Part shown: in pieces, positions 26,724 to 64,000 of the stretch | Layout: every line of letters begins with the position of its first letter | Position numbering within the stretch: the stretch's first letter is position 1 | NCBI GenBank assembly: GCA_963765495.1 | Contig: CAVXWP010000007.1 | Span: forward strand, 512,001 to 576,000 | DNA length: 64,000 bases | Direction of reading: 5' to 3' | Origin: Blastocatellia bacterium | GTDB taxonomy: Bacteria > Acidobacteriota > Blastocatellia > UBA7656 | Made by a program: the position numbers and the translations under genes | Notes under the pieces: generated by a model | The model's input: the letters and a program-made list of their open reading frames with translations, nothing else | The model's database searches: none | What the model was told of the DNA's origin: nothing

Positions 26724-27353
26724 TCACTGCCCGGCGTTTTCCAACTTTTTTTCAAGCAGTATCAAGTTGTCTTGAGCACCTCTGGTATATGGATGATCGT
26801 CGCTCAGGAATTCGCGAAAGATTTTCAATGAGCGTTCGAATAGAACCTTAGCTCCGTCAATATCCTCTTGTTCTTGCAGTACCAAGCCGAGATTGTTGAT
26901 GTCAATAGCAACGTCCGGATGTTCAGAGCCATATACGACCTCATCAATGGCGAGGGCGCGCTCACGCTTTACGCCATTGAGCAGAGCAGGTTTCGCGGCT
27001 GCTTCGTCAAGCTTTAACAGATCAATATAAACGATAGGATGCAGCAATCCTTTGGTTTCGAATTCGCGGACGCGCACAGGTAACAGCTTGCCTTCTTTGC
27101 CCGTAGGGTCTTTGGCAAACGCGGCGGCCCATTCCGATTGTGTGTAAAGCGCCGCAAGATAATCCGGTGAAAGTACGGCTATCGTGCGTTCGGCTCCGGC
27201 TGCTGCGCGGTCCATCTCAAGGACGAAGTTTGAACCGGCAGGGAAGTCCCATTCCTGAAATATGACCGTGTATTTTTCTTCTTCCAGTATCCACGCGATC
27301 CACCTGCCCCACAGTTTATCCGCTTTGTTGTAGCTGATGAAAAAATCCGCCAT
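26724..27353 (-). CDS. TIR-domain protein with two C-terminal TPR motifs (possibly internally deleted)
   Basis: DFFISY...D...WIAWILE, AVLSPDY...SEW, LLPVRV; then ERALAIDEVVYGSEHPDVAIDINNLG TPR. Confidence 0.85.
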   Translation of the reverse strand: MADFFISYNKADKLWGRWIAWILEEEKYTVIFQEWDFPAGSNFVLEMDRAAAGAERTIAVLSPDYLAALYTQSEWAAAFAKDPTGKEGKLLPVRVREFETKGLLHPIVYIDLLKLDEAAAKPALLNGVKRERALAIDEVVYGSEHPDVAIDINNLGLVLQEQEDIDGAKVLFERSLKIFREFLSDDHPYTRGAQDNLILLEKKLENAGQ

Positions 27354-46959: not shown

Positions 46960-47367
46960 TTAATGGGGCTGGATGCCGGAAGGGTTACAGGTCATCTCGA
47001 TGACGGTGTATTGCTTCTTTAGCCTTTCAAGCTCTTTACTCTGCTGATCCAGAATCTCCAAATAATCGGCGGGTGGATTGCCCCAGCATCCCGCGAGCCT
47101 GTAAAAGCGAATCTCTCTGCCGGTCCGGTCAACGAGTTTGCCAGGATCGCATCGCGCTTTCATCTCCGTCAATTTGTCTCGGACGGATATCTGTTTGATC
47201 GCGCCCGTCTCTTTCCCGGGCTTTGCGTCTTCGGTCGAGACGATGTCGGAAAGTTTTATATCAGGCGGAAGACAATCCTGGAGCGACTCCTGATTTTTGT
47301 GGCACGTCGTCATAGGAAGGCTCAACCCGAGCCAGAGCGCGAAACTGAGAGCGGCAAACAATTGCAT
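46960..47367 (-). CDS. Exported hypothetical protein with four spaced Cys in the mature region
   Basis: GGAGG RBS, signal-like N terminus, CLPP, ARC, GCWGNPPADY, MTCNPSG. Confidence 0.7.
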   Translation of the reverse strand: MQLFAALSFALWLGLSLPMTTCHKNQESLQDCLPPDIKLSDIVSTEDAKPGKETGAIKQISVRDKLTEMKARCDPGKLVDRTGREIRFYRLAGCWGNPPADYLEILDQQSKELERLKKQYTVIEMTCNPSGIQPH

Positions 47368-47919: not shown

Positions 47920-50900
47920 ATGAGGGTTTCAATAAAGCGCGCAAGGCATTTGGGAAGTCTGGCAATTATTGTTGTTGGATTGGCAGGCTGGCTGGTTTTG
48001 CCGGGACTTTTAGGCCGGGCTACAACATCCGCTCATATCGGCGAACAGGGGTTGTCAAAGGGAGCACAGGTAGAGGCCGGACTCGACCCCCAACGCCAAA
48101 AAGCGCTTGAGAACCTCTATGCTCAATTTACGGCAGGCGCACCTTTTTCAAGAGAGGAATCCAATATCCTGACCAGATTTGGCGCAGGTGAGAAGATATA
48201 CGATCTTGAGGCCGATATAGTAATCTCTCGCGCGCTTTACGCTTATTACATTCTGGGCAAGGCATTGACGCGTGATCAGCAGGTTTTGCTCGACAGGTAC
48301 AGTTCAGCCGTTGCGCACCGAAACACCGATATAGCCGACCTGAAAGAACAGCTACAGCAGCGGCGCAAGGCTGCCGCCGCAAATGCGCCGCCTCGGACGA
48401 CACCCGAAGTTGCGCCCGCAAATGACACCTGCGCAGGCGCTCAGGTTGTTCCCGCCGCCGGGCCGTTTCCTTTTCTGACTACAACCGTCGATATCACCGA
48501 CGCGACAGGCACAAATGAACCGGCGCTCCCTACGTGCACGTCACCGGCATCGCCTCCCGATCCGACCGTTGTCACGCGAGGCGTCTGGTACACCTTTACT
48601 CCGTCAGCGACGGCAACCTACACCCTGGCCACCTGCGCGGAAGCGCCCACCGCTACGACGGTTGACGATACGGTTATGGCAATCTACACCTCCACGGGAG
48701 GTTGCGCCGGTCCGTTCACTCAGTTGGCGAATGATTCCGGGGATATTGACGGGTGTAACGACGACAGTTGCGTCACTTTACAATCATCATTGCAATCGCA
48801 AATAACGACGCGTCTCAATGCGAGCACTACATATTACATCGTGATCTCGCTTTATGGCTCAGACCCACCAATAACGGGCATGACAAATGTCCAGATGAGA
48901 ATTACCAAAGAGAACCCTCCTGTAAATGACACATGCGCGACAGCGCCTTCGCTATCGCTCAATACGCCTGTCACAGGGTCTTTAATAGCAGCGCAAAATG
49001 ATTATCAACTAAATAATTCAGGTTGTTTTTCAGGCGTAGGGCAGACGCCGTCAACCGCAGCGGGTCGCGATGTGGTCTATTCTTTCACAGCGCCTTCGGC
49101 GGGTACCTACTCATTCAGAGTTACAAAATATAACGGCAGCGAGAGCGATCTGGTTATGTATGCCGCAAGCACCTGTCCGGCGGCAACGCCCGGAACCCCT
49201 GTAACCGTTAGCGGTTGTCTGGGCGCATCCAATCGGTTCGTTTCCGATTTCTTTGGAGGCCCATTCTCTTCGGAGGAAATTACTTGTCTTTCGCTTACTG
49301 CGAGCCAGCAGATCTTCATATTCGTAGACCAGGATAGTTTGAGCACGGGCAGCACTTTTACCATCGAAGCGAACCAGTGTGTTCGCGAAACCGAGGCGAA
49401 TAATACTCCTGCCACAGCCAATCCTTTCGTATGCGGTATAGAAGGAAGTATTACTCCGGCAGGAGATGCGGATTTTTATTCTCTGGGGACATTTACGTCC
49501 GGCTCGCGTCTGTTTGCGCTGGTTGATGGCGTGGCCGCCAACGGGGACGATTTCGATCTGCGCGTGACCACAACCACCGACACACTTGAGTACGACGATA
49601 TAGATTCAACCGAAGCCTTTGGCGATAACTCGGGAACCGTTGCGGGTACGCCTCTAACGAGCGCGGCAACGTTTCTGAGGGTGAGCTATTTCGATCCCTC
49701 AACGGCGAGCGAGCCATATCGTGTGTACGCGGCGGTGCAACCTCCAATCGCTTCGGCTACTTCGGAAACCGAGCCGAACAACACAATAGGAACTGCCAAT
49801 TCGGCTGCGAATAACTATTTCACTGGAACGTTGAGCGGCCCGTCGCCATCGACCGATATAGACATCTATAGCTTCACGGGGCAGGCCGGAGACCTGGTAT
49901 TCATCGGTCTGGATGGCGACCCGCTTCGAAACAACACTCCGATCAATGCCAGGCTGGCATTGCTGGACTCGTCCGGCAACTTAATACTTGAAGTCAACAA
50001 CAACAATTCTTTTTCAAATACGACTTCGGGTGCGGGCAGCCTGACATCAACGACACCAAATTCGCCTGCCGAGTCTATCGTATTTCGGGTGATGACAGGA
50101 GGCACTTATTACGCGAGAGTAGCAATTGATTCATTCGCCACCGGAGCGGTTGCAAGCGGAGATTATCTGCTTTCGATAGCAAAGAATTGTACGACAGGCC
50201 CTTCGGTCAGCAATTCAATATCAGGGACGATCTCTTATTGCATCGACAACTCAAAGAAAGTCCCCAACGCCACCGTCCAGACTACCAGCGGTTCCCCTTC
50301 CGCTTCCACTACTACTAACGCCTCCGGCTTCTATCAACTCGATAACCTCGGCACTGGCCCTTACACCGTTGCTCCTTCCAAAACCGGTGCCGTCTCCGGC
50401 ATCTCTGCTCAGGATATCGGTATCCTCCGCCGCCTCGCCGCTGGCATCGATACCCCCACTCCCTGTCAATCCATCGCTGGCGATACAGATAACAACGGCT
50501 CGCTCGGCGCCCAGGACATCGGCTTCCTTCGAAGATTTGTCGCTCAACTTACTACCACTGGCATCACTGGCTCCTGGAAATTCTCTCCCGCCTCTAGGAG
50601 TTATCCCTCGCTTGTTTCAAATCAAACAAACCAGGATTACGATGCCTTGCTGATCGGAGATGTTGACGGCAACTGGACCCCCGCTGCTCCTGATCCTGCT
50701 TCATTTCAGAAGAGTCAGGCTCCTTCGGCCACTAACCTTGCCCTCTCTTTGCCCAGTGTCGTTGCTCCTCCCGGTTCTACTGATGTCTCTATCCCGGTCA
50801 TGGTTAACGGCACTCTCACAAACGGCGATTTCGTTTTGGGCTACACAATCGAGATCAGTTTCGATCCCAGCGTGCTGGTTCCACATTCGCCCTCATTCAA

Positions 50901-53667
50901 CACGACAGGGACGGTCTCATCGACCGGGGTCGTCACAGAGAACACGGGTGTGTCGGGGAGGCTCCGACTTGTGGTCGATTTCCAGAATCCGCTGATATTC
51001 ACAGGGCAGCAGACGCTGATAATATTGAGGTTCGATGTGGTAGGGACACAGGGACAGATGAGCGGGCTCAACTGGTTCTTCACGGAATTTGGGAGCGGCC
51101 CACCTGCCGTCACCACCACGACTACAAACGGCAACTTCACCGTCACAAGCCCCACTGCCGTAAAAGTCGATGCCTTCAAGGCCACGGGCTTTGACAAGGG
51201 CGTATATCTCCAGTGGCAGACCGGGTTTGAATCTACTAACCTCGGCTTCAACATCTATCGCCAGCAGGCGGGCAAACTCTCTCTTGTTACGCCTGAAATA
51301 TTGGCCGGGTCGGCGCTTTTGACAGGTGACACGCCCTTGCTTGCCGGGCGGAAATATTCGTGGTGGGATAATTCACCCGATAGTAAACAGGACGCGCTCT
51401 ATTATCTGGAAGACATTGACCTCAACGGCACAAGGAGCCTGCACGGGCCGATAGTTGCAACCAGAGCATCAGGCAATCCGCCTGCTGGCTCTCGGGCCGA
51501 GTTGTTGAGCCGGATGGGCAGAGGCAAGGCTACAATCAGCGACTACGTCGCTTCCTCCTCCCCTGGCAGCGCCCAACTGGCAACCGTTTCCTCAAAGAAA
51601 GGATTACAAAACTCCAGGCGAGAGACAGTGCCTGTTGATCTGGCGACCTCCTCTGCCATAAAGATGTGGATAGGCAATAGCGGGCTCTATCGCCTCACTC
51701 AGCCGCAACTGCTGAGCGCCGGCCTCGATTCCGGGATAGATCCGCGACTCTTGCAGATGTATGTCGACGGGCAGGAGGTTCCAATCCTTGTCACTGGCCA
51801 GGAGGACGGAAGATTTGATGCCACGGACACAGTGGAATTCTACGCTTCGGCAATCGACAGCCCGTTCACCTCGAAGCGGGTCTACTGGCTTGTGGCAGGG
51901 ACAGTGGCGGGAAGACGGATAACAAAAGTGACGAGTCCCGGGAAGGGGCAGAGCAACGCTAGTTTTACCTCGACCCTGGAGCGACGAGACAAGACGATCT
52001 ACTTTTCGAGTTTGAGGAACGGGGATGAGGAGAACTTCTTTGGGCCGGTCATAGCCTCGCAGGAAGTCGATCAGTCGATAGATGTGAAAGATATGGCAGC
52101 GGGAGGAGGAACTGGGGCAGTGCTTGAAGTGGGATTACAGGGAGTAAGTGCGGTCAACCATCGAGTAAAAGTGAGGTTGAACGGGACGGAGTTGGGAGAG
52201 GTAGATTACAGTGGGCAGGGAGCAGGAGTAGGGAGATTCACACTCTCAAGCGGGCAACTGGTGGAAGGAAGAAACGACATCAAGATGGAGGGGGTGGGAA
52301 CAGGAGGAGATGTGAGCCTGGCCGAGTATGTGAGAGTGAGCTATGAGAGGAGGTACAAGGCGGAAGGAGATGAGTTGAGATTCCGAGCAGAGGGGGGCCA
52401 GGAGGTAAAGATAGGAGGGTTCACAAGCGAACGGATACGAGTATTTGATGTAACGGAGGAAGGGAATGTAGTGGAGATAGGAGGAGCGATAGAAGAGAGC
52501 GGGAACGGGTATGAGATAGGGATCAAGGTAGGAGGAGCAGGAGAGAGAGAGATGATGGCGATAGAGGAAGGGGAGGTGAGAGAGGTAGGAGAGATGAGAA
52601 AGAACGAGGCGTCGAAGCTGAGAGCGACGAGCCAGGGAGCGGACCTGTTGATAATCACGACGGGAGAGATGGGAGGAAGTCTGGAAGGGTTGAAGGCGCT
52701 GAGACAGAGTCAGGGGATGGCGGTAGCGATAGTGAAGGTGGAAGACATCTATGACGAGTTCAGCCAGGGAGAGAAGACGCCGTATGCGATAAGAGAATTT
52801 CTGATATATGCGAAGAGGAACTGGAAGAGGAAGCCGGGATATGTGTTGATGGGAGGGGATGCGAGTTACGACCCGAAGAATTATCTGGGAGCGGGGGAAT
52901 GGGATCTGGTGCCGACGAAGTTGGTGGACACGGCGTATCTGGAGACGGCCTCAGATGAATGGATGGTGGACGAGGATGGAGACGGGATAGGAGAGATGGC
53001 GATAGGGCGACTGCCGATAAGGAGCGAGGAAGAAGGGATGAGGATGGTAGGGAAGATAATGAGTTATGAGAGAGGAGTATCGAGGAGGAGTGTGTTATTG
53101 GTATCGGATGCGAATGATGGATACAACTTTGAGCAGGCGAACGAAGAGTTGAAGGGGATGATACCGAAGGGGACGAGGATAGAAGAGGTAAAGAGGGGGC
53201 AGATGAGCGAGGAGGAAGCGAGGGCGAGGGTGATAGGAGGGATAAACGAAGGGCAGGCGATAGTGAGTTATGCAGGGCACGGGTCGGTGGATATATGGAG
53301 AGGAGAGATATTGAGGAGCGAGGATGGAGAGATAATGAGGAATGGTAATCAGTTGAGTGTATTTCTGATGATGACGTGTTTGAACGGATATTTTGAGGAT
53401 CCGATGTTGGAGAGTTTGGGAGAGGCGATGATGAAGGCGGAGAGGGGAGGAGCGGTAGCGGTATGGGGGTCGAGCGGGATGTGTGAAGCGGGAGAGCAGG
53501 CGGCAGTGAGCAAGGAGATGATGAGGGAGCTAAACAGTGTGGAGGGGTTGACGAAGAAGAAGGTGACGATAGGAGAAGCGGCGAGGAGGGCGAAGGGGAG
53601 GATAGGAGATGTGGATGTAAGGAGGACGTACGTGTTGTTGGGAGACCCGACTATGCGCCTCAGATAA
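47920..53667 (+). CDS. Secreted protein: PxNDTC and ETExNN (PPC-like) repeats + dockerin-like + cohesin-like + Ig-like + C25 peptidase domain (C25-3)
   Basis: GAGGAG RBS; PANDTC/PVNDTC, ETEANN/ETEPNN; GDTDNNGSLGAQD; ISFDPSVL; YAGHG, MTCLNG, LLGDP. Confidence 0.9.
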   Translation: MRVSIKRARHLGSLAIIVVGLAGWLVLPGLLGRATTSAHIGEQGLSKGAQVEAGLDPQRQKALENLYAQFTAGAPFSREESNILTRFGAGEKIYDLEADIVISRALYAYYILGKALTRDQQVLLDRYSSAVAHRNTDIADLKEQLQQRRKAAAANAPPRTTPEVAPANDTCAGAQVVPAAGPFPFLTTTVDITDATGTNEPALPTCTSPASPPDPTVVTRGVWYTFTPSATATYTLATCAEAPTATTVDDTVMAIYTSTGGCAGPFTQLANDSGDIDGCNDDSCVTLQSSLQSQITTRLNASTTYYIVISLYGSDPPITGMTNVQMRITKENPPVNDTCATAPSLSLNTPVTGSLIAAQNDYQLNNSGCFSGVGQTPSTAAGRDVVYSFTAPSAGTYSFRVTKYNGSESDLVMYAASTCPAATPGTPVTVSGCLGASNRFVSDFFGGPFSSEEITCLSLTASQQIFIFVDQDSLSTGSTFTIEANQCVRETEANNTPATANPFVCGIEGSITPAGDADFYSLGTFTSGSRLFALVDGVAANGDDFDLRVTTTTDTLEYDDIDSTEAFGDNSGTVAGTPLTSAATFLRVSYFDPSTASEPYRVYAAVQPPIASATSETEPNNTIGTANSAANNYFTGTLSGPSPSTDIDIYSFTGQAGDLVFIGLDGDPLRNNTPINARLALLDSSGNLILEVNNNNSFSNTTSGAGSLTSTTPNSPAESIVFRVMTGGTYYARVAIDSFATGAVASGDYLLSIAKNCTTGPSVSNSISGTISYCIDNSKKVPNATVQTTSGSPSASTTTNASGFYQLDNLGTGPYTVAPSKTGAVSGISAQDIGILRRLAAGIDTPTPCQSIAGDTDNNGSLGAQDIGFLRRFVAQLTTTGITGSWKFSPASRSYPSLVSNQTNQDYDALLIGDVDGNWTPAAPDPASFQKSQAPSATNLALSLPSVVAPPGSTDVSIPVMVNGTLTNGDFVLGYTIEISFDPSVLVPHSPSFNTTGTVSSTGVVTENTGVSGRLRLVVDFQNPLIFTGQQTLIILRFDVVGTQGQMSGLNWFFTEFGSGPPAVTTTTTNGNFTVTSPTAVKVDAFKATGFDKGVYLQWQTGFESTNLGFNIYRQQAGKLSLVTPEILAGSALLTGDTPLLAGRKYSWWDNSPDSKQDALYYLEDIDLNGTRSLHGPIVATRASGNPPAGSRAELLSRMGRGKATISDYVASSSPGSAQLATVSSKKGLQNSRRETVPVDLATSSAIKMWIGNSGLYRLTQPQLLSAGLDSGIDPRLLQMYVDGQEVPILVTGQEDGRFDATDTVEFYASAIDSPFTSKRVYWLVAGTVAGRRITKVTSPGKGQSNASFTSTLERRDKTIYFSSLRNGDEENFFGPVIASQEVDQSIDVKDMAAGGGTGAVLEVGLQGVSAVNHRVKVRLNGTELGEVDYSGQGAGVGRFTLSSGQLVEGRNDIKMEGVGTGGDVSLAEYVRVSYERRYKAEGDELRFRAEGGQEVKIGGFTSERIRVFDVTEEGNVVEIGGAIEESGNGYEIGIKVGGAGEREMMAIEEGEVREVGEMRKNEASKLRATSQGADLLIITTGEMGGSLEGLKALRQSQGMAVAIVKVEDIYDEFSQGEKTPYAIREFLIYAKRNWKRKPGYVLMGGDASYDPKNYLGAGEWDLVPTKLVDTAYLETASDEWMVDEDGDGIGEMAIGRLPIRSEEEGMRMVGKIMSYERGVSRRSVLLVSDANDGYNFEQANEELKGMIPKGTRIEEVKRGQMSEEEARARVIGGINEGQAIVSYAGHGSVDIWRGEILRSEDGEIMRNGNQLSVFLMMTCLNGYFEDPMLESLGEAMMKAERGGAVAVWGSSGMCEAGEQAAVSKEMMRELNSVEGLTKKKVTIGEAARRAKGRIGDVDVRRTYVLLGDPTMRLR

Positions 53668-53783
53668 CGGCTCTGACATTTTGAAAAGAGCGGATTATGC
53701 AAAGCAGGTTTGTATTTTGACGAATGGGGGATGTGGTATTGTCTGTTCTGGATTTACCTCGGCATAAAGTGAGAACCACCTGA

Positions 53784-54608
53784 ATGGAGAAAATTGACCG
53801 CCTGGGCTGGGCGGATGGGATCTCTTTTACCTCCTATGGTGTGCGGATAGGTATTAGAGTAAACAGGACCGAAGCTCTTGAGCGCATAAAAGAGCATTTG
53901 CCTCCGGGATGGAAGTTCTCGCGGGCAAAGATCGTTGATCGGTTGTATTCGCTCATAATTGGCGGCTCGGGAGCGAAGCCTAATGTCCGCCGCTTCAATA
54001 TACTTTATGCCGATCTGTTAAAGATCGCTCGAACGCTCGATCTGGATGCTGTGCTTGATACGCTCGAATCGGATTTGCAGCTTTATGTTGCAGAAGAGGC
54101 GCGTCGGAGAGTCTTTGTGCATGCGGGCGTCGTCGCATGGGACGGGCAGGCCATAGTAATCCCCGGACGCAGCCATTCGGGGAAGACCACTCTGGTGACG
54201 GAATTCGTGCGAGCCGGAGCAGTTTATTATTCGGATGAATATGCAGTACTCGATCAACAGGGGCGCGTCCATCCTTATCCTCGCCCGCTTGGAATAAGGG
54301 AAGGCGACTCCAGCAAACAGACAAAATATCCTGTGGAAGAGATAGGCGGTAGGGCCGGGATTAAGCCCTTGCCAGTTGGAATGGTGGTGGTAAGCAAGTA
54401 TAGAAATGGGGCGCGGTGGCGGCCTCGTAAACTGACTCCCGGGCAGGGGGCGCTGGCTTTACTCGACAATACGGTCTCTGCCCGCAGACAGCCGGAAAAG
54501 GCCCTTTCAGCCTTCAAACACATAGTGCCTCAGGCGGTTGTGCTTAAGGGCGAAAGAGGTGAAGCCAGCGAGGTTGTTAACTCGATATTAACTAGGATAA
54601 TGGCTTGA
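53784..54608 (+). CDS. HPr kinase-related P-loop kinase
   Basis: FVHAGVV, PGRSHSGKTTL, YYSDEYA, PYPRPL. Confidence 0.88.
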   Translation: MEKIDRLGWADGISFTSYGVRIGIRVNRTEALERIKEHLPPGWKFSRAKIVDRLYSLIIGGSGAKPNVRRFNILYADLLKIARTLDLDAVLDTLESDLQLYVAEEARRRVFVHAGVVAWDGQAIVIPGRSHSGKTTLVTEFVRAGAVYYSDEYAVLDQQGRVHPYPRPLGIREGDSSKQTKYPVEEIGGRAGIKPLPVGMVVVSKYRNGARWRPRKLTPGQGALALLDNTVSARRQPEKALSAFKHIVPQAVVLKGERGEASEVVNSILTRIMA

Positions 54609-54625
54609 ATTATTAAAGGTTTTGA

Positions 54626-54655
54626 TTGACTTTTTCAGGCATTACGTTGTATAAC
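54626..54655 (+). promoter_or_regulatory. Sigma70-type promoter for the PqqD-peptide gene
   Basis: TTGACT-18 nt-TATAAC, then GGAGAG RBS. Confidence 0.65.
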
Positions 54656-54708
54656 CCAAGCACGTGAAAAACGATGCTTATAGCTGCTTTTAAGCTCATG
54701 GAGAGTAT

Positions 54709-55188
54709 ATGAAGAATACAGATCAAGTTTTACCGCTCGCTCGGAAGGACGGACTGGTTGTTCAAGAGTTACCTGATGAAGTATTAATCTATGATTTAGA
54801 TCGACATAAAGCTCATTGCCTCAATCCAACTGCTGCTCTTGTCTGGAATCATTGCGACGGCCAGATGACTATGACCGAGATGATAGGTATCCTGAAGGAA
54901 GAAACACACTCTCCAATAGATGAGGATGTGGTGTGGCTGGCTCTTGATCAATTAGCCAAAACCCATCTGTTATCTGAGCAGGTAATCCGGCCTACAGGAA
55001 GCGGGAAACTCAATCGAAGAGACGTGATGCGACGCATAGGCTGGGCAGCGGCAGTGGCACTTCCACTGGTCACAAGCATCGTCGCCCCATCTGCGGTTCA
55101 GGCCGTGACCTGTAGAGCACCCGGACAACCCTGCACTACAGGCGTGCAATGCTGTTCAGGTGTGTGCAACACTACAACGTGCGCGTAG
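54709..55188 (+). CDS. PqqD/RRE domain fused to a twin-arginine signal and a 6-Cys peptide (putative RiPP precursor)
   Basis: VVQELPDEVLIYD...HCLNPTAALVWNHCDG...ALDQL (PqqD pattern); NRRDVMRR + hydrophobic stretch + AVQA; VTCRAPGQPCTTGVQCCSGVCNTTTCA. Confidence 0.88.
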   Translation: MKNTDQVLPLARKDGLVVQELPDEVLIYDLDRHKAHCLNPTAALVWNHCDGQMTMTEMIGILKEETHSPIDEDVVWLALDQLAKTHLLSEQVIRPTGSGKLNRRDVMRRIGWAAAVALPLVTSIVAPSAVQAVTCRAPGQPCTTGVQCCSGVCNTTTCA

Positions 55189-55257
55189 TCCGAATACGCC
55201 GTCTATCAACTGACATTATCGGCTGCTGCCTCTATCGGTGAGTGAAGGTCTATCTTC

Positions 55258-56328
55258 ATGGTCGAGGCCGACGCAGATAATTCACTTGGAGAACAGGTTT
55301 CAGCCGTCCTTACTGGAGCCTGGCGTTGTGATCCTCCTGTTCCCGACTTTTCAGTTCGAGAATTGAGTGAAGTCGCTCCCCTGCTTTTAGGGTCCGGGGG
55401 AGCGGCTTTGGGCTGGTGGCGAGTTCGCCTATCTCATCTTAAAGACTCTCCTGCGGCGCTGGAACTGCAACACGCCTATCGCATTCATACGTTGAATTCC
55501 TTTGTGCACGAACGGGCGATAAAAGAGGTTTTCGCGCTCTTGCGCTCGGCGGGGATCGAGCCTGTGCTCGTTAAAGGCTGGGCGATTGCCCGCCTCTATC
55601 CTGAAAAATGTCTCCGCCCTTACGGAGACCTCGACCTTTGCTTTCGGCCCGAACAATACGAGCAGGCTTCGGATGTGCTGGAGAGTCCCGAGGGCAGGCA
55701 TTACAACGTAGACGCGCACGAAGGGTTTGCCAAACTCGACGATTACAGCGTAGACGAATTGTACAGTCGTTCCGAGTTGATAGCTCTGGATAACATCGAA
55801 GTGCGCGTGTTGGGGCCTGAAGATCATCTTCGCATTCTGTGCGTGCACCTGCTCAGGCATGGGGCGTTTCGGCCTTCGTGGTTGTGCGACATCGCGGTGG
55901 CGCTCGAAAATCGACCCGCCGACTTCGATTGGAATCGATGTCTTGGAAAAGAGACCCGAAAGGCCGGCTGGGTTGTCTCATCGCTCGCTCTTGCCCATAG
56001 ATTACTGGGCGCGAGAGTGGATGATACTCCGGCAGCGGGCGCAAGCGCGCGGCTTCCGTCCTGGCTGGTTGCGCACGTCCTCAAGCAATGGGAAGCCCCC
56101 TATCCGGCGCTCTACCCGCCGATGAGTTATTATCCCCCGTTGATTACTTACTTCCGTCATCCGGCTGGATTTCTGAAGGCTCTTCGCAAGCGATGGCCCG
56201 ACCCGCTTGAGGCTACGATAAGATTGGAAAGACCGATAGATGAAGCCCCGCGGCTCCCTTATCAGATAGGTTATTGTCTCTTGCGATTAAAGAACTTTCT
56301 GGCGAGCCTGCTGAAATCATCCGAATGA
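55258..56328 (+). CDS. Nucleotidyltransferase family protein (NTP_transf_5-like)
   Basis: GIEPVLVKGWAIARLYP...RPYGDLDL, VDAH, LGPEDHL..LCVH, WLCDIA. Confidence 0.88.
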   Translation: MVEADADNSLGEQVSAVLTGAWRCDPPVPDFSVRELSEVAPLLLGSGGAALGWWRVRLSHLKDSPAALELQHAYRIHTLNSFVHERAIKEVFALLRSAGIEPVLVKGWAIARLYPEKCLRPYGDLDLCFRPEQYEQASDVLESPEGRHYNVDAHEGFAKLDDYSVDELYSRSELIALDNIEVRVLGPEDHLRILCVHLLRHGAFRPSWLCDIAVALENRPADFDWNRCLGKETRKAGWVVSSLALAHRLLGARVDDTPAAGASARLPSWLVAHVLKQWEAPYPALYPPMSYYPPLITYFRHPAGFLKALRKRWPDPLEATIRLERPIDEAPRLPYQIGYCLLRLKNFLASLLKSSE

Positions 56329-56441: not shown

Positions 56442-57758
56442 CTAATCTGCCGCGCTTGCCTTCTCCGTGATTATTGATGTCGATTCGAACAGAAGCGACT
56501 GCAAGAGGAGCGAATCGTGGAAGGATGAGTATATATCCTCAAACTCATCCTGCAACTGAGTGGCATATTCTGCCGGATATGATCTTTCGACCTCCTGTTT
56601 TATCTGCTCAATCGAAAGACCCCGCAAAAGGCACCGGAGTATGAACAAACAATCCTCATCGAAGTAGTCCATACCGAGTATATTTGGCTCTGCCGATCCC
56701 AGCACTTTCGTGGTTGAAAACTCCATCACCCAATCGGCAACCGTGTCGACAGAATCCTTTTCGGGAAAGCGTTGCTTGACCAGATCGAGGATCATCTCTC
56801 TTTGCGGCACGTTCAGCAGCAACGCCATAAAGAATCGGTGGTCGCTTTCGGTCAAATAGGCCCTTCGTCTCGACATATTTAACTGTCTCTGGAGTTCGGC
56901 AAAGACCCGGGGAACAATATCCATCAACTGCCCATGCTTGAGGCGGGCCTTTTCGAGCAGCTTATTGAAGCGTTCTCTGCCGGTCGAAAGCTGAAATATG
57001 CGTTCCATCTCGTCGGAGGTCAGGTGTTGAAATGCCGTATAGAGTATCGAAAAAGAGGTGTGAAAATCTGAGTGAGCGATCATCTCACTGATCATGGAAT
57101 CGGCGTCCTGATGCTTCATCCTGAGGAGCAGGGCGGCGCTCTGAACCTTCTTTGTGGATGAGATTTCAGCAAAGAAAGGATTCGAGGCAATATAAGGTTT
57201 CAGATATTCAAACTGCGGCAACACGCCGGGGGTTTGATAGGTTCTGATTGTGATAGTCGTCGATGGTCTGTCAAGATGAAACAGCGAGTGTATGTAGCGG
57301 TCGCCGGGCAATATCTTTCTGATCTGGCCCTTCTTCAGCAACTCGACCTCCTTAAAAACAGTCTGCCCGACCTGAAGATGAGAGTTTATCTCAACCTCCC
57401 GGTTGAATCCGTACTGGCTGTGGATGCTCGACCCGGAGAGCACCTGAAAGGCCCCTGAAAAGGCGTGCTGATGGATGCTTGTGGTTCCATCGAGCCAGTA
57501 ATAGATATCTATATAAAACCGTGGTCCGCTATAGAGCGTGATCGGGGGGTCGCCGAAACGGGCGTCAATGTCTTGCTGCGGAGGAATCTGTATGGCTTTG
57601 CCAAGCCACTCGATTATGTTCCAGGGGTCGACCTGCTCGCTCGGATTGGTTTCGGCGAGCGCCTGCGCAGCAATGTCGGGGAATATATCTTCGTTATAAT
57701 TTTTGTCTCTCCATCGCTGTTCTACAAGCGATCCGAGTCTCTGAAAAAAGTCCATCAT
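56442..57758 (-). CDS. Cupin-fold (cysteine-dioxygenase-like) metalloprotein with helical C-terminal domain
   Basis: YYWLDGTTSIHQHAFSGAFQVLSG ... YIHSLFH; GGAGG RBS. Confidence 0.7.
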   Translation of the reverse strand: MMDFFQRLGSLVEQRWRDKNYNEDIFPDIAAQALAETNPSEQVDPWNIIEWLGKAIQIPPQQDIDARFGDPPITLYSGPRFYIDIYYWLDGTTSIHQHAFSGAFQVLSGSSIHSQYGFNREVEINSHLQVGQTVFKEVELLKKGQIRKILPGDRYIHSLFHLDRPSTTITIRTYQTPGVLPQFEYLKPYIASNPFFAEISSTKKVQSAALLLRMKHQDADSMISEMIAHSDFHTSFSILYTAFQHLTSDEMERIFQLSTGRERFNKLLEKARLKHGQLMDIVPRVFAELQRQLNMSRRRAYLTESDHRFFMALLLNVPQREMILDLVKQRFPEKDSVDTVADWVMEFSTTKVLGSAEPNILGMDYFDEDCLFILRCLLRGLSIEQIKQEVERSYPAEYATQLQDEFEDIYSSFHDSLLLQSLLFESTSIITEKASAAD

Positions 57759-57886: not shown

Positions 57887-58295
57887 TTTTCGCGCTTTAG
57901 GTTTCCGAACAAGATGAGGTCGCCAGGAGCGATCAGGGGTGCAGATAAGATCAAAGCTTTTGGAGAAGTATTGTTCGTCTCACCTTAGGAAGCGCGCGCG
58001 GAGAAATCCAGGAAAATTGAAGAGAATGGAGACTCGCAGATTGTGCTTGTCTGTCGAGCGTCCTTGATGATTCCAGAATTTGCTCGTAACATCTCAGCAT
58101 CAAACTCCCCCTTAAGAACTCATAAGGATGCTGTTTTGACAAACTGAATTGCCGTCGTGTCGGCTTCCCTCGCGGGCTTACCTTTCAAAGGGCGTAGCCT
58201 GCTCAAAACGCCGCAATACGAAGGGTAATTTTCGACTGCCCCCAGGCCCGGCCCATTCGATCAATGATCAGGTTCCTCAGGAAATCGTAATACTA

Positions 58296-59582
58296 ATGAC
58301 CCTGGAAATATCTCTAAAAAAGGCGACAGCCAGGATTGCCCTGATGGGGGCCGCCGCCGCTTTGTTTTGTCTGCTTTCCGTATTGATAATTTCCAATTTC
58401 ATTACGGGAATAATGGCCGACGAGCGTATCAAGGTGAATCGCGGGCTTCTGGCCTCGACAATCATATATTTTCCGAATTCGGCCCGTTTGCAGGCCCGGC
58501 TTGCGCAGGTTGAGCTGGCGGAGCCTGACCGCGATCTTTCCGTAGCCGAAGCTCACGCCCGGCGTGCAATCGCGCTTTTGCCGGATAATTACAAGCCCCG
58601 GCTTTTACTTGCTTCAATCGAAGAATTGAAGGGGGATCGCGACTCCGCCGAGCTCTCCTTGCGCGAGGCGGTTCGGCTCGCACCACACAATCGAGAGGTC
58701 CACTACCGACTGGCTAATCTGCTGCTGAGAGAAGGCAAACTTGACGAATCGGTTGAAGAGTTTCGCCTGACGACCGAAGCCAATCCCTCTCTTCTTCCCG
58801 CGACGCTCGATCTCGTATGGCGGGCCACGGGTGGCGATACGGAAGCGGTGAAAAAGATCGCGGGCACAGATGTGAAAGCGAGGCTCGCGCTCGCTCAATT
58901 TCTCGTCAATCAATCGCGCGCAGATGACGCGGCAACGGTTTTCGACGGCCTCGACCGCTCGACGCAGATGGATGCGCCAGAGACCGCTCCTTTCCTCAAT
59001 TCGCTCATCGCAAAGGGGGAGGGAGGGGTTGCGCGAAGGATTTGGGGTGAATTGCTGGGAGGCAGCCGCACAGGCGCGCTCGTTTCAAACGGCGGATTTG
59101 AAGACGACATCCTCAAGAACTTCGATCAATTCGACTGGGCTATTTCGCGCAGCGAATACGCACGCATTCTTATAGACACTCGCCTGGCGCACGGCGGGAC
59201 GCGTTCGCTTAAGATAGATTTCACAGGCCGGGATACGACCCGACTCGATAACGAGATTCGCCAGCTTGTAATGGTCAACGCGGGAGTCCGATACAGATTG
59301 GAGTGCTACGCAAGAACAGAGGAGCTTGTCACGCCCGAAGGACCGCGCGTGGTTGTGACAGACAAGTCGAACAACTGGCTGGCCTCTTCCGCGCCCCTTG
59401 CTTCGGGGACGAGCGACTGGCAGCGAATCGCGATTGAGTTTGCCGCTCCATCAGGCGACATAGGGGATAAACCCGGCGGGCAGATGGTTTACATCTCGAT
59501 CAAACGAAAGCCTGAATTCAGCTATGACGATCCTACACGGGGAAGCGTCTGGTTTGACGATTTCTTAATCAGTAGGCAGTAG
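58296..59582 (+). CDS. Membrane-anchored TPR + carbohydrate-binding (CBM4/9-like) protein
   Basis: N-terminal TM, TPRs (AVRLAPHN...YRLANLLLREG), LVSNGGFE...VWFDDF. Confidence 0.8.
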   Translation: MTLEISLKKATARIALMGAAAALFCLLSVLIISNFITGIMADERIKVNRGLLASTIIYFPNSARLQARLAQVELAEPDRDLSVAEAHARRAIALLPDNYKPRLLLASIEELKGDRDSAELSLREAVRLAPHNREVHYRLANLLLREGKLDESVEEFRLTTEANPSLLPATLDLVWRATGGDTEAVKKIAGTDVKARLALAQFLVNQSRADDAATVFDGLDRSTQMDAPETAPFLNSLIAKGEGGVARRIWGELLGGSRTGALVSNGGFEDDILKNFDQFDWAISRSEYARILIDTRLAHGGTRSLKIDFTGRDTTRLDNEIRQLVMVNAGVRYRLECYARTEELVTPEGPRVVVTDKSNNWLASSAPLASGTSDWQRIAIEFAAPSGDIGDKPGGQMVYISIKRKPEFSYDDPTRGSVWFDDFLISRQ

Positions 59583-59705
59583 GCAGTAGGCAGTTATAGG
59601 AATCGGGTACCAACTACTCATATTCATATCCGGCTTCTACCTCTATCTGATCCGGTTTAACTTGATTTACCGCTTTATAACTGCCTACTGCCTACTGCCT
59701 ACTGC
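59570..59705. repeat. Inverted heptamer arrays (AGGCAGT)n ... (ACTGCCT)n
   Basis: Arrays at 59570-59594 and 59680-59705. Confidence 0.88.
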
Positions 59706-59722
59706 TTATAGCGGCTCTGATT

Positions 59723-60910
59723 GTGATCGGCCTTGCGCAGAGCGTGGCATTTACGGACGGCGACGGCCGCAGGGTGAGCCTCTCGATGAATGTAGATGCT
59801 ACTCGCCCGGCGGTGATGGTGATGTTTTTTCTGCTGGTTTCGTTTATAATTGCTCGGAACTTTGTTGCTACACGCGAGCGGGTAGGTTCACTGGCCAGCT
59901 TCCTCGTATTCTACGGACTGGCCATGTCGGTATTTGCGCTGATTCAACATTTTGCCTGGGATGGTCGGTTCTATTGGTTGAGGCCGACCGATCAGGGAAC
60001 GGTATTCGGACCGTTTGTCAATCGCAATCACTATGCCGGCTACATAGAGATGCTGGCCCCGATTCCGGTTGCGCTCATAATCACTCGCGGCGTGAGCCGG
60101 GAATCGTGGGCGCTCTACGGTTTTGCAGCCGCGATCATGGGTATATCGGTGATTGTTACCCTCTCGCGAGGAGGCACAATCAGCCTAATCTCAGGAATGG
60201 TGTTTCTGGCGATTGCGAGCGCCCGGCTCAATAAAAGGAACGAAGGTAAAACAGTGACGGACGCAAAAGCGCCTGCAAAACGGCACTTTTCATCCTTCAA
60301 GCGCGTCGGGGTTGTTGCTTTCATCAGTATTGCGGTCCTTGCGGGCGTGATCTGGATAGGAGCCGAAGCGGTTCTGAATCGCGCGGTCGAGACTCTGAAT
60401 ACGGTTCGGAAAAGCGAAACTCAGATCCTGAGCCGCACAGGGATTTGGAAAGATACGTGGGCGATGATTCGCGCCAATCCGGTTATGGGAGTAGGTATCG
60501 GCGCTTACGAAGCAGTTTACCCTATGTATGGTCGCGGCGACGGCACTATGATAGTAGATTATGCGCACAATGATTATTTGCAGGTGCTCTCGGATACGGG
60601 CATCATTGGCGGATTTGTCGCGCTCTGTTTCCTCGGGCTGATCTTTCGCGCGATCAGGCGAGGGGCTGAAAATAATGATCCTCTTCTGAGAGGAGCAGCG
60701 CTTGGCGGCGGCGCGTCCATTTTTTCGATCCTCGTTCATAGTTTATTTGACTTCAATCTGCAAATACCATCTAATGCTTTGCTGTTTCTGGTTCTTGCTG
60801 CCGTGGTCTCGTCAGTCGGCGCGCTTGAAGGCGCGAGCGAACTGACGAAGGCGGGGCAGCCGGCTGTCGCGATTGATACGACCGGCCTTCATACAGGAGT
60901 ACGATCATGA
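59723..60910 (+). CDS. O-antigen ligase/Wzy_C family membrane protein (5' end unclear)
   Basis: GPFVNRNHYAGY, TLSRGG, RTGIW, PVMGVGIG, AHNDYLQ, HSLFDFNL. Confidence 0.88.
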   Translation: MIGLAQSVAFTDGDGRRVSLSMNVDATRPAVMVMFFLLVSFIIARNFVATRERVGSLASFLVFYGLAMSVFALIQHFAWDGRFYWLRPTDQGTVFGPFVNRNHYAGYIEMLAPIPVALIITRGVSRESWALYGFAAAIMGISVIVTLSRGGTISLISGMVFLAIASARLNKRNEGKTVTDAKAPAKRHFSSFKRVGVVAFISIAVLAGVIWIGAEAVLNRAVETLNTVRKSETQILSRTGIWKDTWAMIRANPVMGVGIGAYEAVYPMYGRGDGTMIVDYAHNDYLQVLSDTGIIGGFVALCFLGLIFRAIRRGAENNDPLLRGAALGGGASIFSILVHSLFDFNLQIPSNALLFLVLAAVVSSVGALEGASELTKAGQPAVAIDTTGLHTGVRS

Positions 60911-62016
60911 GATTTAGAACTGAAAGAATGCCGACACAAGTTTTCCGGTTATTTGTTTTGTCAGTAATTTTGTTTGCGCCCGCAGGCGGCATATCCTTTT
61001 CTCAACAGCGCGAGCACCCTCAGCAGATGCGGCCCCCGTCTCAGTCGATCACCGATCCCCTGCCTGCGCCAAGCATCCTTGTCTCTCCCGACGAGGATTA
61101 CCGCATAGGCCCGGCCGATGTGATCGAGATACAGATAGAGGATGCGCCGGAGCTTTCTAATACCTGGCGCGTGAGCGCAAACGGCACCGTCTCGATGCCT
61201 TATCTGGATAGCGTGAAGGCGGAAGGCAAGTCGCCCGTGGAGCTTGAGAAATTCATAGCCGACGGATTGCGCGGTCGCTATTTGAAAGACCCGCAGGTCC
61301 ACGTTCTGGTCAAACAGATCAACAGCCGGTCATTTTTTATTCAAGGTTCTGTTCGGCGTCCGGGCGTATATCAGATAGAGGGTCGCCCGTCGCTGCTAAA
61401 GCTCATCACAGTCGCCGGAGGACTGGCCGACAGTCATGGCTCTACCGCTTTCATCATCAGCGAGAAAAAGCCAAAGAGAGACGAAGGCGCAGAAACCGTT
61501 GATGCGGCTCCGGCAAAAGAGATATTGCAGACATCCGGGCAGAGATCCGACGGTAAGATTGAAAATGCTGATGCAGGCGCGGATTATGATCTCAAGACCG
61601 TAAACATCAGCGGGTTGCTCAGAGGCCGTTTCAATCAGAACATGTATCTTGATCCCGGAGATATAGTAAATATCCCGCCGCTCGATGTCTTTTTCGTGGC
61701 GGGCGAAGTAAACGCGCCGGGGTCGTTTCCCCTGAAAGAAGGCACGACCTTGCGGCAGGCGGTCTCTCTGGCTCAAGGCACGACTTTCAATGCTGCCGGA
61801 AGCGAGGGAGTCATCTTCCGCGAAGACCTGGCCACCGGGCAGCGCAACGAAATCAAGGTTGATATCGGCGAAGTTATGAGAGGCAAAAAGGAAGATATAC
61901 AGATACAGGCAAACGATATAATCATAGTCCCAAACAGCCGGTTCAAATCCGTAGGCAACGCATTGCTCAGGGCCTTCGGACTCGGAACGGCTCAACGCGG
62001 GCCTTATCGTTATTGA
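60907..62016 (+). CDS. Polysaccharide export protein (Wza/OPX, SLBB repeats)
   Basis: YRIGPADVIEI, VSANGTVSMPY, YLKDPQV, GSVRRPG, GEVNAPG. Confidence 0.92.
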   Translation: MRFRTERMPTQVFRLFVLSVILFAPAGGISFSQQREHPQQMRPPSQSITDPLPAPSILVSPDEDYRIGPADVIEIQIEDAPELSNTWRVSANGTVSMPYLDSVKAEGKSPVELEKFIADGLRGRYLKDPQVHVLVKQINSRSFFIQGSVRRPGVYQIEGRPSLLKLITVAGGLADSHGSTAFIISEKKPKRDEGAETVDAAPAKEILQTSGQRSDGKIENADAGADYDLKTVNISGLLRGRFNQNMYLDPGDIVNIPPLDVFFVAGEVNAPGSFPLKEGTTLRQAVSLAQGTTFNAAGSEGVIFREDLATGQRNEIKVDIGEVMRGKKEDIQIQANDIIIVPNSRFKSVGNALLRAFGLGTAQRGPYRY

Positions 62017-62120
62017 TGCTTGCGGGACTGTTATTTTCGAGAGCGCGGGCAGAGGTGCGCGCTCTCGTATCCACTTAACACAATCATTTTAGTAATGAGC
62101 GGTCATATCGGAGAACCCCG

Positions 62121-64000
62121 ATGGATAAAGAAAGATTCGAATTAGAAAAGCTCCCAATAGATACGGAACACAAAGAGATAGGCGGGCTGCGCCCGCGCTA
62201 CGCGAGCGCAGGTTATGGTTACGGAAGTAATTACGGCGTGGACGAAGGCAAAATCCATGTGCGCGAACTGTGGCGAACAATCCGCAAGCGCAAATGGATG
62301 ATCCTCACGCTGATCCTCGTCATTACTACGCTTGTAACTATCGAGATGTATCGGACCAGGAATACCTATCAGGCAAGCGCCTTGATAGAGATAGGCAAAG
62401 ACAGCGCCTCGCTTGGAAAGACCGGCAGCCTCTTCGGAGACGATTACGACCCGTATTATATGGTCAATATAAAGACGAAGATGCTCTCGCTACAGAGCCG
62501 GTCATTGATGGAAAGCGTGGTCACAAGTCTCAATCTCGACCAGAACCCGAAATTTCTGGAAGCGGGTCGAAAGAAATCCTTCTGGGGGGGGATAAAATCA
62601 ATAGCCGCCAGAGTGGGTCTCGGAAGCCCGGAAGACAACAAAAATCTTGATGATGAGAAGTTCGACGTTCAATCCGACATGACCGAACAGGAGGCCGAAG
62701 AGAAACGACGCGAAGCCTGCGTCACTATACTTCAGGCAACCTTGAACGTAGAGCCGATTCGCGAGACGAAAGCCATCAGAATTTCATACACGCACGCCGA
62801 CCCTGAGATCGCGCAGGCGGTCACAAACAGCATCGCCGAAAACTTCCTGAACAACAATTTCCAGTCCAAGACCGAGAAATTCACGAGGACGGCCAAGTGG
62901 CTTGACGAACAAACGAACCGCCTCAAGGCTCAGGTCGAAAAGGCCGAACAGGCGCTTGCAAACTACACTCGCGAAAGAGGAATCTTTTCGACCGACGGGA
63001 AAGATGCGACCCTGACTACCGACAAGCTTTCGCGTCTGCACGAGCAGGCTATGCGGGCCGAAACCGACCGCATGCTGAAGCAATCGCTTTACGAAGAGGT
63101 CAAGCAGGGCCGCGTTCAGCAACTCCCCGAAGCCTTCGCCGACATGGTTTACAAATCGTCTCCGAAGATGGCCGAGCTTCAAAGACAACTCGGAGAACTT
63201 GAAGCCAACGCCGCCGAACTCGGCGTAAAGTTTGGTCCCGACAACCCGCAGGTCAGAGAGGTGAAGGGGCGAATAGAGGCCATCAAAGAACAGATAGCTC
63301 AAAACAGCACCTCGCTCGAAGCGAAGGTTCGAAACGATTATGAGCGTGCCTTGCGCGACGAGCAGATGCTTAAAAACGCCCTGACGCAGGCAAAAGGCGA
63401 AGCCATACAGCAGAATCAGGATGCTATTCAATTCAATATTCTGAAGCAGGACGTAGACACGGCTAAGACGCTTTACACGGAATTTCTGGGCAAGACCAGC
63501 CAGGCAAACGCCCAGATAGCCGAGCAGTACAACAACCTGAAGGTGATCGAGCCCGCGCAGTTGCCTCACTCAGCGGTCGGCCCCCGGCGTATGCTCATGA
63601 TTATGGCCAGTTTTATGTTGAGTCTGGCCGTCGGCGTGGGGCTGGCGTTCTTCCTCGAATATCTGGACAACACAATCAAGACGGTCGAAGACGTGAGCCG
63701 CTACACGCAGCTACCCGCCCTGAGCGTAATACCGGCAGCGACCGGAAACGGCATTCGCCGCCTTTCATCCAAAGGGAGAAAGCGGATCGCCACCGCGAAT
63801 CTTGAGAATGCGGGCGGCAACTCTCAACTCGTGGCGCTCGATACCCGATCATCTGCCGCCGAAGCCTATCGCGTATTGCGTACGTCGGTGCTGTTGTCGG
63901 CTGCCGGGCACCCGCCAAAGACCATACTCGTCACAAGCGGGCAGCCGGGCGAGGGCAAGACCACGACCGTAGTCAACACGGCCATCTCGCTTGCGCAACT
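62121..64000 (+). CDS. Polysaccharide co-polymerase/tyrosine autokinase (Wzc/GumC), 3' truncated by window edge
   Basis: Not in the ORF track; read by hand as MDKERFELEK...ELWRTIRKRKW, TM, coiled coil, TM, AEAYRVLRT, Walker A GQPGEGKTT near 63940. Confidence 0.92.
   Translation, partial: MDKERFELEKLPIDTEHKEIGGLRPRYASAGYGYGSNYGVDEGKIHVRELWRTIRKRKWMILTLILVITTLVTIEMYRTRNTYQASALIEIGKDSASLGKTGSLFGDDYDPYYMVNIKTKMLSLQSRSLMESVVTSLNLDQNPKFLEAGRKKSFWGGIKSIAARVGLGSPEDNKNLDDEKFDVQSDMTEQEAEEKRREACVTILQATLNVEPIRETKAIRISYTHADPEIAQAVTNSIAENFLNNNFQSKTEKFTRTAKWLDEQTNRLKAQVEKAEQALANYTRERGIFSTDGKDATLTTDKLSRLHEQAMRAETDRMLKQSLYEEVKQGRVQQLPEAFADMVYKSSPKMAELQRQLGELEANAAELGVKFGPDNPQVREVKGRIEAIKEQIAQNSTSLEAKVRNDYERALRDEQMLKNALTQAKGEAIQQNQDAIQFNILKQDVDTAKTLYTEFLGKTSQANAQIAEQYNNLKVIEPAQLPHSAVGPRRMLMIMASFMLSLAVGVGLAFFLEYLDNTIKTVEDVSRYTQLPALSVIPAATGNGIRRLSSKGRKRIATANLENAGGNSQLVALDTRSSAAEAYRVLRTSVLLSAAGHPPKTILVTSGQPGEGKTTTVVNTAISLAQ

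Follow-up and report, generated by a model that had tools for sequence, protein, structure and literature searches.

A predicted one-piece RRE-leader-core precursor encoded between an HprK-related kinase and a nucleotidyltransferase in a Blastocatellia bacterium: a candidate variant of the phosphopeptide systems

RiPP recognition elements (RREs; RiPPs being peptides made by ribosomes and modified after translation) have been described either as discrete adaptors or as components of enzymes. Here we consider a gene coding for an RRE fused to what is most likely its own substrate, flanked by genes for an HprK-related kinase and a nucleotidyltransferase, in a 64,000-nucleotide stretch from the genome of a Blastocatellia bacterium (contig CAVXWP010000007.1, positions 512,001 to 576,000 of the forward strand; henceforth the window, C7:512001-576000). 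The closest described systems are the LPP clusters of Bacillota (LppA/B/K/N/S/D), which lie in capsule loci and combine an RRE, an HprK kinase, an NTP transferase, a signal-peptidase-like enzyme and an ABC pump, with no cyclase (Popov et al. 2026, PMC13381572). According to the accessible parts of that study, LppK phosphorylates Ser3, located 15 residues after the leader residue Pro-13; the main text, to the same extent, makes no mention of Acidobacteria, and the Acidobacteria rows among the first listed in the supplement carry discrete RREs of about 100 residues (PMC13381572). In the Bsf lasso system, as far as its accessible text goes, BsfK phosphorylates Ser3, at position +16 from Pro-14, or a Thr in its place, and is stimulated by the RRE (PMC10368454). 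In paeninodin and pseudomycoidin a C-terminal Ser is modified, with the pseudomycoidin transferase adding hexoses to the phosphate (PMC8498205, accessible portion). An earlier, first-pass annotation of the window had taken the latter two as its model; the cyclase-less LPP type with its N-proximal Ser3 proves closer, and a C-terminal Ser site of the paeninodin type was rejected, such a residue being present in only 7/115 cores.

On balance, the reading we favor is that the locus encodes a one-piece precursor of an LPP/Bsf-like phosphopeptide, in which RRE, export-like leader and Cys-rich core share a single frame and the predicted acceptor is the one Thr that precedes the first Cys of the core.

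The cassette and its predicted fused precursor

The three open reading frames (ORFs) are intact and lie on one strand, as read from the sequence and its ORFs, and the first-pass description of a kinase and an NTP_transf_5 gene flanking an RRE-peptide gene on the same strand is borne out by their coordinates and family matches. The features of the cassette are:

53784..54608, + strand: HprK-related kinase, 274 aa (TIGR04352, below cut-off; His113, P-loop 128-135, Ser150-Asp151-Glu152)
54709..55188, + strand: RRE-leader-core fusion precursor, 159 aa (PF05402; family relatives)
54727..54978, + strand: PqqD/RRE domain, residues ~7-90, three strands and three helices (AlphaFold2; best structural matches lasso B1 TbiB1 and 6JX3)
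55012..55104, + strand: putative twin-arginine leader, residues 102-132 (N-R-R-D-V-M, hydrophobic stretch, Pro119, strand 121-125, V-Q-A cleavage-like end)
55105..55185, + strand: predicted mature core, 27 aa, with six Cys in the pattern C-X6-C-X5-CC-X3-C-X4-C (from the sequence, the even Cys counts and a resemblance to Toxin_29)
55108..55110, + strand: Thr134 (Pro119+15), predicted phospho-acceptor at mature position +2
55258..56328, + strand: NTP_transf_5 nucleotidyltransferase, 356 aa (PF14907, E 2.6e-28)

The kinase matches TIGR04352 (HprK-related kinase A; E 2.8e-16, 59.4 bits versus a cut-off of 200) and has no match in Pfam. Across the family its HAG, GxSxxGKT and YYSDE motifs are retained, invariant or nearly so in 66 relatives. 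The transferase likewise retains its KG, GDxDL and EDH motifs, with Lys106, Gly107, Asp124, Asp126 and Asp152 invariant in 73 relatives. Sequence searches of the PDB recovered no significant relative of either enzyme.

The product of the middle gene contains a PqqD domain (PF05402, E 5.4e-7, above the cut-off), and structural searches place its predicted fold next to the lasso B1 proteins (Foldseek E 6.5e-4 to TbiB1; VIA Z 8.9, root-mean-square deviation (rmsd) 2.3 and 83 aligned residues to 6JX3). Searches with the fusion returned 1,483 relatives at E<=0.001 and 1,560 50%-identity clusters at E<=1e-30; the named relatives are from Blastocatellia, and a search of the Atlas yielded only unnamed or PqqD clusters. 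The first-pass picture of an RRE joined to a knottin thus stands as regards the RRE but omits the twin-arginine, hydrophobic, AxA-ending leader (residues 102-132) that intervenes. The consensus of this leader comprises (S/T)-R-R-x-hydrophobic-hydrophobic, a run of 14 or more uncharged residues after the arginine pair, L-P-x-V-x-S-I-x-A-P and a small-x-Ala end; it reads V-A-L-P in our protein, with the Pro invariant and no Tyr in the consensus. Among 115 of 118 copies (the three motif-less ones were dropped), the arginine pair is present in 114, its distance from the Pro varying little, and the small-x-Ala end in 104.

Several lines of modeling indicate that the leader very likely docks on its own RRE, with the Pro119 region in a cleft and strand 121-125 extending the RRE sheet. 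An AlphaFold2 model of residues 1-133, i.e., devoid of the core, reaches a pTM of 0.81 and keeps strand 121-125, implying that the strand could pair with the RRE sheet alone; helix 103-110, too, is packed in this RRE-leader model. In a rough covariation analysis of the mean-field type (383 sequences, ~241 effective), the pair His36-Ser123 ranks third, with Ala42-Ala114, Leu77-Leu118 and Ala42-Gly111 within the top 11. Further, the alignment to NisB in complex with the NisA leader spans model residues 2-128 (Z 7.4, rmsd 4.0, 102 aligned), and free RREs end near residue 90; we take the NisB chain numbers up to 1020 to be leader, given the length of NisB. Binding in cis would be the simplest reading, and a swap between two copies may also occur.

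After the leader the cores are hypervariable. That of the window has the C-C-CC-C-C spacing of inhibitor cystine knots and a match to Toxin_29 that remains below the cut-off (19.1 bits versus 25). The label "knottin" from the first pass accordingly fits the Cys spacing of this core, but the same spacing recurs in only 43/134 copies. What persists is the parity of the Cys count, which is even in 123/123 locus copies with at least six Cys and in 130/132 of the 50%-identity representatives (5/150 representatives lack the leader motif); hence, the cores look disulfide-bonded, and would require an oxidizing compartment. The window core has neither Asp nor Glu, and Ser and Thr make up 17-19% of core residues. 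A few copies carry Cys-free passengers, namely a Gly-Pro-Thr collagen-like repeat (L064), a 240-aa glycine-rich domain (PF12810; L144), a Pro-rich tail (L163) and a tail of merely five residues that adjoins a kinase and a transferase (L150).

Two variations on this architecture were also observed: five loci (L046, L047, L048, L049 and L050) have two or three RRE-fusion genes with different cores close together, in the manner of multi-precursor peptide clusters, and one protein (P0199) has the RRE-leader and a 12-Cys core followed by what resembles, by eye, a Hint (intein-like) domain ending in His-Asn, with Pfam detecting PqqD alone.

Putative export signal, candidate acceptor site and predicted kinase docking

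The arginine pair, the uncharged stretch and the AxA end of the leader together have the form of a twin-arginine translocation (Tat) signal, with the consensus Phe absent. To survey potential partners, we assembled search-returned loci and 100 regions hand-picked for diversity, a set that is not a random sample; it holds 134 distinct copies with a recognizable leader, 75 of them with 5 kb on both sides. Near these 75, BLAST searches in which the S26 and lasso ABC proteins of this genome were the queries detected one S26 peptidase and one ABC exporter, the latter belonging to an adjacent lasso cluster; a partial asparagine-synthetase-like match lies within 5 kb of one copy, and the B2 leader peptidase occurs near none. 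Given the lack of a dedicated peptidase or exporter, we propose that the same leader serves as a Tat signal. This appears fairly probable from the motif, the even Cys counts, the missing linked exporter, the presence in the genome of TatC (together with two S26 peptidases) and a MauE/MauD-like fusion at 14/75 loci, although the window cassette is without one. Two observations weigh against it: the arginine pair is internal, at residues 103-104 behind the RRE, and lacks the consensus Phe; and TIGR01409 is matched by only 11/118 members (E<=0.01), the window protein not being among them. Internal Tat signals do have precedent.

The same two observations would suit a precursor that is modified as we propose but whose arginine pair is simply a part of the RRE-bound leader, with release by an unlinked exporter or by C25 proteases after export. 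The packing of helix 103-110 in the model is consistent with that option, as are the C25 genes with intact His/Cys that lie beside 20/75 copies and recur outside the class. Still, it would not account for the near-fixed spacing of the arginine pair from the Pro, the long uncharged stretch and the small-x-Ala end; no exporter or peptidase accompanies the cassette, and the even Cys counts call for an oxidizing compartment. We therefore regard it as rather unlikely.

The Tat reading leaves Thr134 at position +2 of the mature core, and it is this position (Pro+15) that stands out as the candidate acceptor. It is Ser/Thr in 110/134 locus copies and 128/144 diverse representatives, against 10-15% at the flanking +14 and +16 and a background of 17.5% over the remaining core, no other core position exceeding 41%. 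A crude control with 157 signal-peptide-like proteins of the same genome gave Ser/Thr at +2 in 33. Ser is kept at Pro+15 in all four intact Cys-free passengers (L064, L144, L150 and L163), and in 40 kinase-then-fusion pairs the residue at +15 is Ser/Thr in 29 and Asn in seven, with two pairs having Ser at +16 and two being apparently frameshifted. The first-pass proposal that Thr/Ser of the knottin would be phosphorylated thus retains Thr as the likely target, but the predicted site is the one Thr before the first Cys rather than the many inside the knot. Ser123 of the leader motif was rejected as a phospho-site, since it covaries with His36 of the RRE and lies within the docked strand.

A number of observations count against this assignment. 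Asn occupies Pro+15 in 61/120 of the closest homologs, a redundant subfamily of the window's own family (51 of these 61 have Ser/Thr at Pro+19), and the seven kinase-adjacent pairs with Asn, all from the same family, keep their kinase motifs. Ser/Thr is no commoner beside a kinase (60/76) than without a nearby one (23/29). The acceptor is kept in copies of three genomes in which the kinase was not found (G001, G145 and G148, drafts of 340-740 contigs), and conversely both copies examined in G325 lack it while a kinase lies elsewhere in that genome, which is also why G325 was rejected as a natural experiment. Kinase columns separating the partners of Asn-type from those of Ser/Thr-type precursors were confounded with kinship. 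Finally, LppK did not accept Thr, according to the accessible part of the LPP study (PMC13381572).

These data raise the alternative that Pro+15 is conserved for structure or as signal-peptidase context, with the kinase targeting other hydroxyls, either the Thr/Ser of the knot or Ser123. Ser, Thr and Asn all cap turns, and such a role would explain the frequency of Asn in the nearest subfamily; the Ser and Thr content of the cores and the presence of Ser/Thr at position 123 in 109/115 copies would supply other targets. Nevertheless, we consider this unlikely: none of the other core positions approaches Pro+15 in its Ser/Thr frequency, the Ser survives in passengers of unrelated make-up down to the five-residue tail, Ser123 appears to be committed to the docked strand, and the control proteins show a far lower rate at +2.

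Binding of the precursor by the kinase is supported by a model of the two with ATP and Mg, which scored 0.86 against 0.00 for the best of three controls. The mark used for such scores is reached by 116/157 solved complexes and 2/215 mismatched pairs, counts that hold only roughly here because the model was built with alignments of our own and a ligand. Contacts agree between runs to at least 95%, with a partner pLDDT of at least 84. In the model, kinase helices 218-249 are placed on the RRE strands and leader residues 122-127, and the interface includes kinase residues 112-113, 129-131 and 152 and precursor residues 126-137; which residue, Thr134 or another, is turned toward the catalytic site is not given by the output. 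As the kinase has no solved relative by sequence, the model is less likely to recall a like complex, an argument limited by the existence of RRE-leader complexes in the PDB. A complex of the RRE with the kinase, of the kind envisaged in the first pass, is thus predicted.

Co-occurrence, proposed pathway and genomic setting

In 151 Blastocatellia genomes (including the unpublished G128; kin are not independent), searched with cut-offs of 1e-5 for the fusion and 1e-30 for the enzymes, the fusion was found in 81, the kinase in 76 and the transferase in 81. The complete trio is present in 71 genomes and all of it is missing from 65, which bears out their anticipated co-occurrence across genomes; transferase and fusion coincide in 76, and all 76 kinase-positive genomes have the fusion. 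The kinase lies directly upstream of 50/118 fusion copies. The 5-kb flanks of the 75 copies contain the transferase in 49 cases, the kinase in 47, both in 39, an exopolysaccharide (EPS) gene in 41, a C25 gene in 20, a MauE-thioredoxin fusion in 14 and a 438-aa protein (see below) in eight. A phylum-wide draw, with the best 14 candidates scored per genome, gave matches in 30/301 genomes, 14 of them outside the class and ~8 of these over most of the RRE and leader; several matches again lie beside kinase, transferase, C25 or EPS genes.

The two enzymes could conversely serve EPS synthesis or other envelope substrates, leaving the fusion as an unmodified secreted mini-protein. Indeed, kinase and transferase persist together in EPS loci without a nearby fusion (L106-L108, L111, L115 and L121), five genomes have the transferase without the fusion, and four have the fusion without a detected kinase. 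In the LPP system, deletion of lppN was without visible effect, as far as the accessible text reports (PMC13381572). Set against these are the presence of the fusion in every kinase-positive genome, the position of the kinase directly upstream of so many copies, the confident complex model and the conserved acceptor register, in view of which we hold this possibility to be quite unlikely.

The first-pass annotation had recorded no lasso cyclase, B2 protease or radical SAM gene, and for the window this is borne out: whole-genome family searches gave no match there to Asn_synthase, Transglut_core3, S26 peptidase or radical SAM (the last with the best 40 candidates scored), and Pfam scans of 13 and 23 larger window ORFs likewise yielded no cyclase, B2, S26 or radical SAM. 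This does not extend to the genome, which has a separate complete lasso cluster (C1:1263085-1271326) with B1, B2, cyclase, precursor, kinase, PRMT-like methyltransferase, transferase and ABC transporter. The B1-like RRE fold, the C1 cluster itself and one fusion locus abutting a lasso cluster (L095) might suggest that the cassette is a lasso satellite relying in trans on the B2 and cyclase of the C1 cluster. This can be set aside as most improbable, for the core lacks Asp/Glu for ring closure, B2 is near none of the 75 copies, and the C1 cluster comes with a precursor, an RRE, a kinase and a transferase of its own.

Returning to the one-piece phosphopeptide precursor, we propose the following pathway. 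The RRE would very likely bind its own leader as modeled; the kinase would then likely dock on the composite RRE-leader sheet and phosphorylate Thr134, a step suggested by the complex model and by analogy to LPP and Bsf. Thereafter, the transferase could, with a chance a little short of even, add a sugar or a nucleotide to the Thr134 phosphate, as in pseudomycoidin, with the donor probably coming from the adjoining EPS locus. The leader would next act, fairly probably, as an internal Tat signal, with signal peptidase I cutting after Ala132, and the core disulfides would form outside the cytoplasm, aided in some loci by the MauE-thioredoxin fusion. The resulting mini-protein, carrying a phospho(glyco) tag, would belong to the cell envelope or the EPS matrix. 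A more speculative extension, to which we accord only a minor chance, is that the RRE-leader is a portable "tag and export" header rather than the precursor of a small molecule: the RRE would hold the Tat signal until a phospho-sugar is placed on residue +2, whereupon any passenger, be it a disulfide knot, a collagen-like repeat or the 240-aa glycine-rich domain, would be exported and linked through the tag to the exopolysaccharide, possibly with PorU-like C25 enzymes. If real, such a header would be a new way of sorting proteins and anchoring them to the surface, and would hint at the reason for which HprK/PqqD/transferase trios are found in the EPS loci of diverse bacteria.

On one side of the cassette are three giant C25/PorU-like genes and on the other an EPS locus (Pfam, NCBIfam), with an optional partner gene on the opposite strand:

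35003-40159, 40772-46825 and 47920-53667, + strand: three giant C25/PorU-like proteins (PF01364; His/Cys motifs intact; recurring context)
56442..57758, - strand: 438-aa protein with an H-x-H...H motif, cupin-like by eye, an optional partner near 8/75 copies within 5 kb
58149..63998, + strand: start of the exopolysaccharide locus (TPR, Wzy_C, Wza, Wzc; Pfam/NCBIfam; recurring context)

The 438-aa protein has conserved H95-x-H97 and H156, is without a match in sequence searches of Pfam, NCBIfam and the PDB, and its role may be that of an optional tailoring enzyme. Some cassettes, at seven loci (e.g., C2:231033-232238; L001:13723-14934), have directly beside them a 401-aa Cys-cluster protein that matches nothing in Pfam or NCBIfam. 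The genome has two further RRE-fusion loci, one with kinase and transferase (C2:233496-234089) and one beside a C25 gene and transferase (C1:1218419-1218904). Between the kinase and precursor genes, a promoter-like TTGACT-18-TATAAC is seen by eye (window 54626-54655); it is absent from the list of our promoter scan because the scan demands T at the last position, and the scan total is not clearly higher than chance (7 versus 3.7 +/- 1.9). For RNA, no holder was listed, a result that is neutral as to expression.

The C25/PorU-like giants share a common layout of passenger, P-T-A-x motif, Ig-like domain, PorU-like part and C25, with His/Cys intact in all 11 of the genome, and could be self-processing surface proteins. 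The resemblance of the P-T-A before their Ig-like domain (21/39 C25 proteins) to the A-P-T-A end of the leader is unproven and possibly due to chance. In the third C25 gene, a 3.46-kb stretch at the 3' end (window 50206-53669) is 99.5% identical to C1:311400-314863, the end of a C25 gene whose N-terminal half differs, and window 50205-51430 is 93% identical to C7:410268-411493; these stretches suggest recent domain swapping among the 11 C25 genes. Elsewhere in the window are a 135-aa ORF between two C25 genes (46960-47367, - strand; signal-like start, four Cys, no family match in Pfam or NCBIfam) and a 209-aa short protein with TIR_2 and TPR (26724-27353, - strand).

Comparison with described systems

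A three-gene layout near EPS loci is presumably also that of the HPr-rel-A cassette (TIGR04352 kinase, TIGR04353 PqqD chaperone). TIGR04352 is the best match of 66/66 kinases of the present family, and 43/118 RRE parts match TIGR04353 weakly; but the scores are far below the cut-off, and the PqqD there is a discrete protein of ~74 positions without leader or core. At E 0.01 the window protein has no match to TIGR04353, the best family member reaching E 2.4e-6. Another partial parallel is MauA, the small subunit of methylamine dehydrogenase, which with MauD/MauE combines a Tat-type signal and a Cys-rich passenger. These are shared with the present family, as is the MauE-thioredoxin partner at some of its loci; in contrast, the Mau system has no RRE, kinase or transferase, and our cores have no redox cofactor motif.

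An unfused cousin was observed in another genome (G098; L119:1466-9789). It comprises a discrete RRE, radical SAM, a kinase, a SipW-like peptidase, a C25 gene and a transferase belonging to the family found here; its 63-aa precursor combines a YxKP leader with a Ser that stands at Pro+16, ahead of a Cys.

With the phosphorylated lasso peptides the cassette shares an HPr-kinase homolog and a nucleotidyltransferase next to a B1-type RRE, but has no B2, no cyclase and no Asp/Glu ring acceptor at core positions 7-9 (cf. the accessible parts of PMC8498205 and PMC10368454). A search of the literature, mostly open papers, returned none on the RRE-leader fusion family; a fusion of an RRE to its own precursor behind an export-like signal does not figure in the accessible parts of the surveys PMC7470986 and PMC12710340, nor in those of PMC8498205 and bioRxiv 2023.03.08.531785, although the supplement of PMC12710340, with its 8,000 RRE-peptide pairs, could list members. 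We have here a real, conserved and apparently undescribed one-piece variant of the RRE/HprK/transferase phosphopeptide type, and its large family offers a great variety of disulfide-rich cores of soil bacteria.

The likeness to LPP, judged from the accessible parts of that study (PMC13381572), is considerable: in both an RRE, an HprK-like kinase and an NTP transferase occur without a cyclase in a polysaccharide locus, and a conserved leader precedes a variable core with a hydroxyl residue 15 positions after the leader Pro and a signal-peptidase-type cut, predicted in our case, just before it. Unlike in LPP, where the RRE is discrete and the precursor separate, the RRE is fused ahead of its own precursor in one frame in the window and the family; an arginine pair and hydrophobic stretch take the place of the YxxP of the LPP leader; the SipW-like peptidase and ABC exporter dedicated to LPP have counterparts near one copy each in 75; and the cores are disulfide-rich, with Thr and Asn found at the site and an Acidobacteriota host. 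With enzyme, adaptor, likely substrate and predicted site in three adjacent genes, the present cassette makes directly testable what the transferase adds, a question it shares with LPP (PMC13381572) and Bsf (PMC10368454), and opens to experiment the question of the product of HprK/RRE/transferase trios in polysaccharide loci. The system would work, in our assessment, like LPP and like the tailoring step of the Bsf lasso system, but stands outside the membership of both, lacking a discrete RRE, the YxxP motif, a dedicated peptidase, an exporter and a cyclase.

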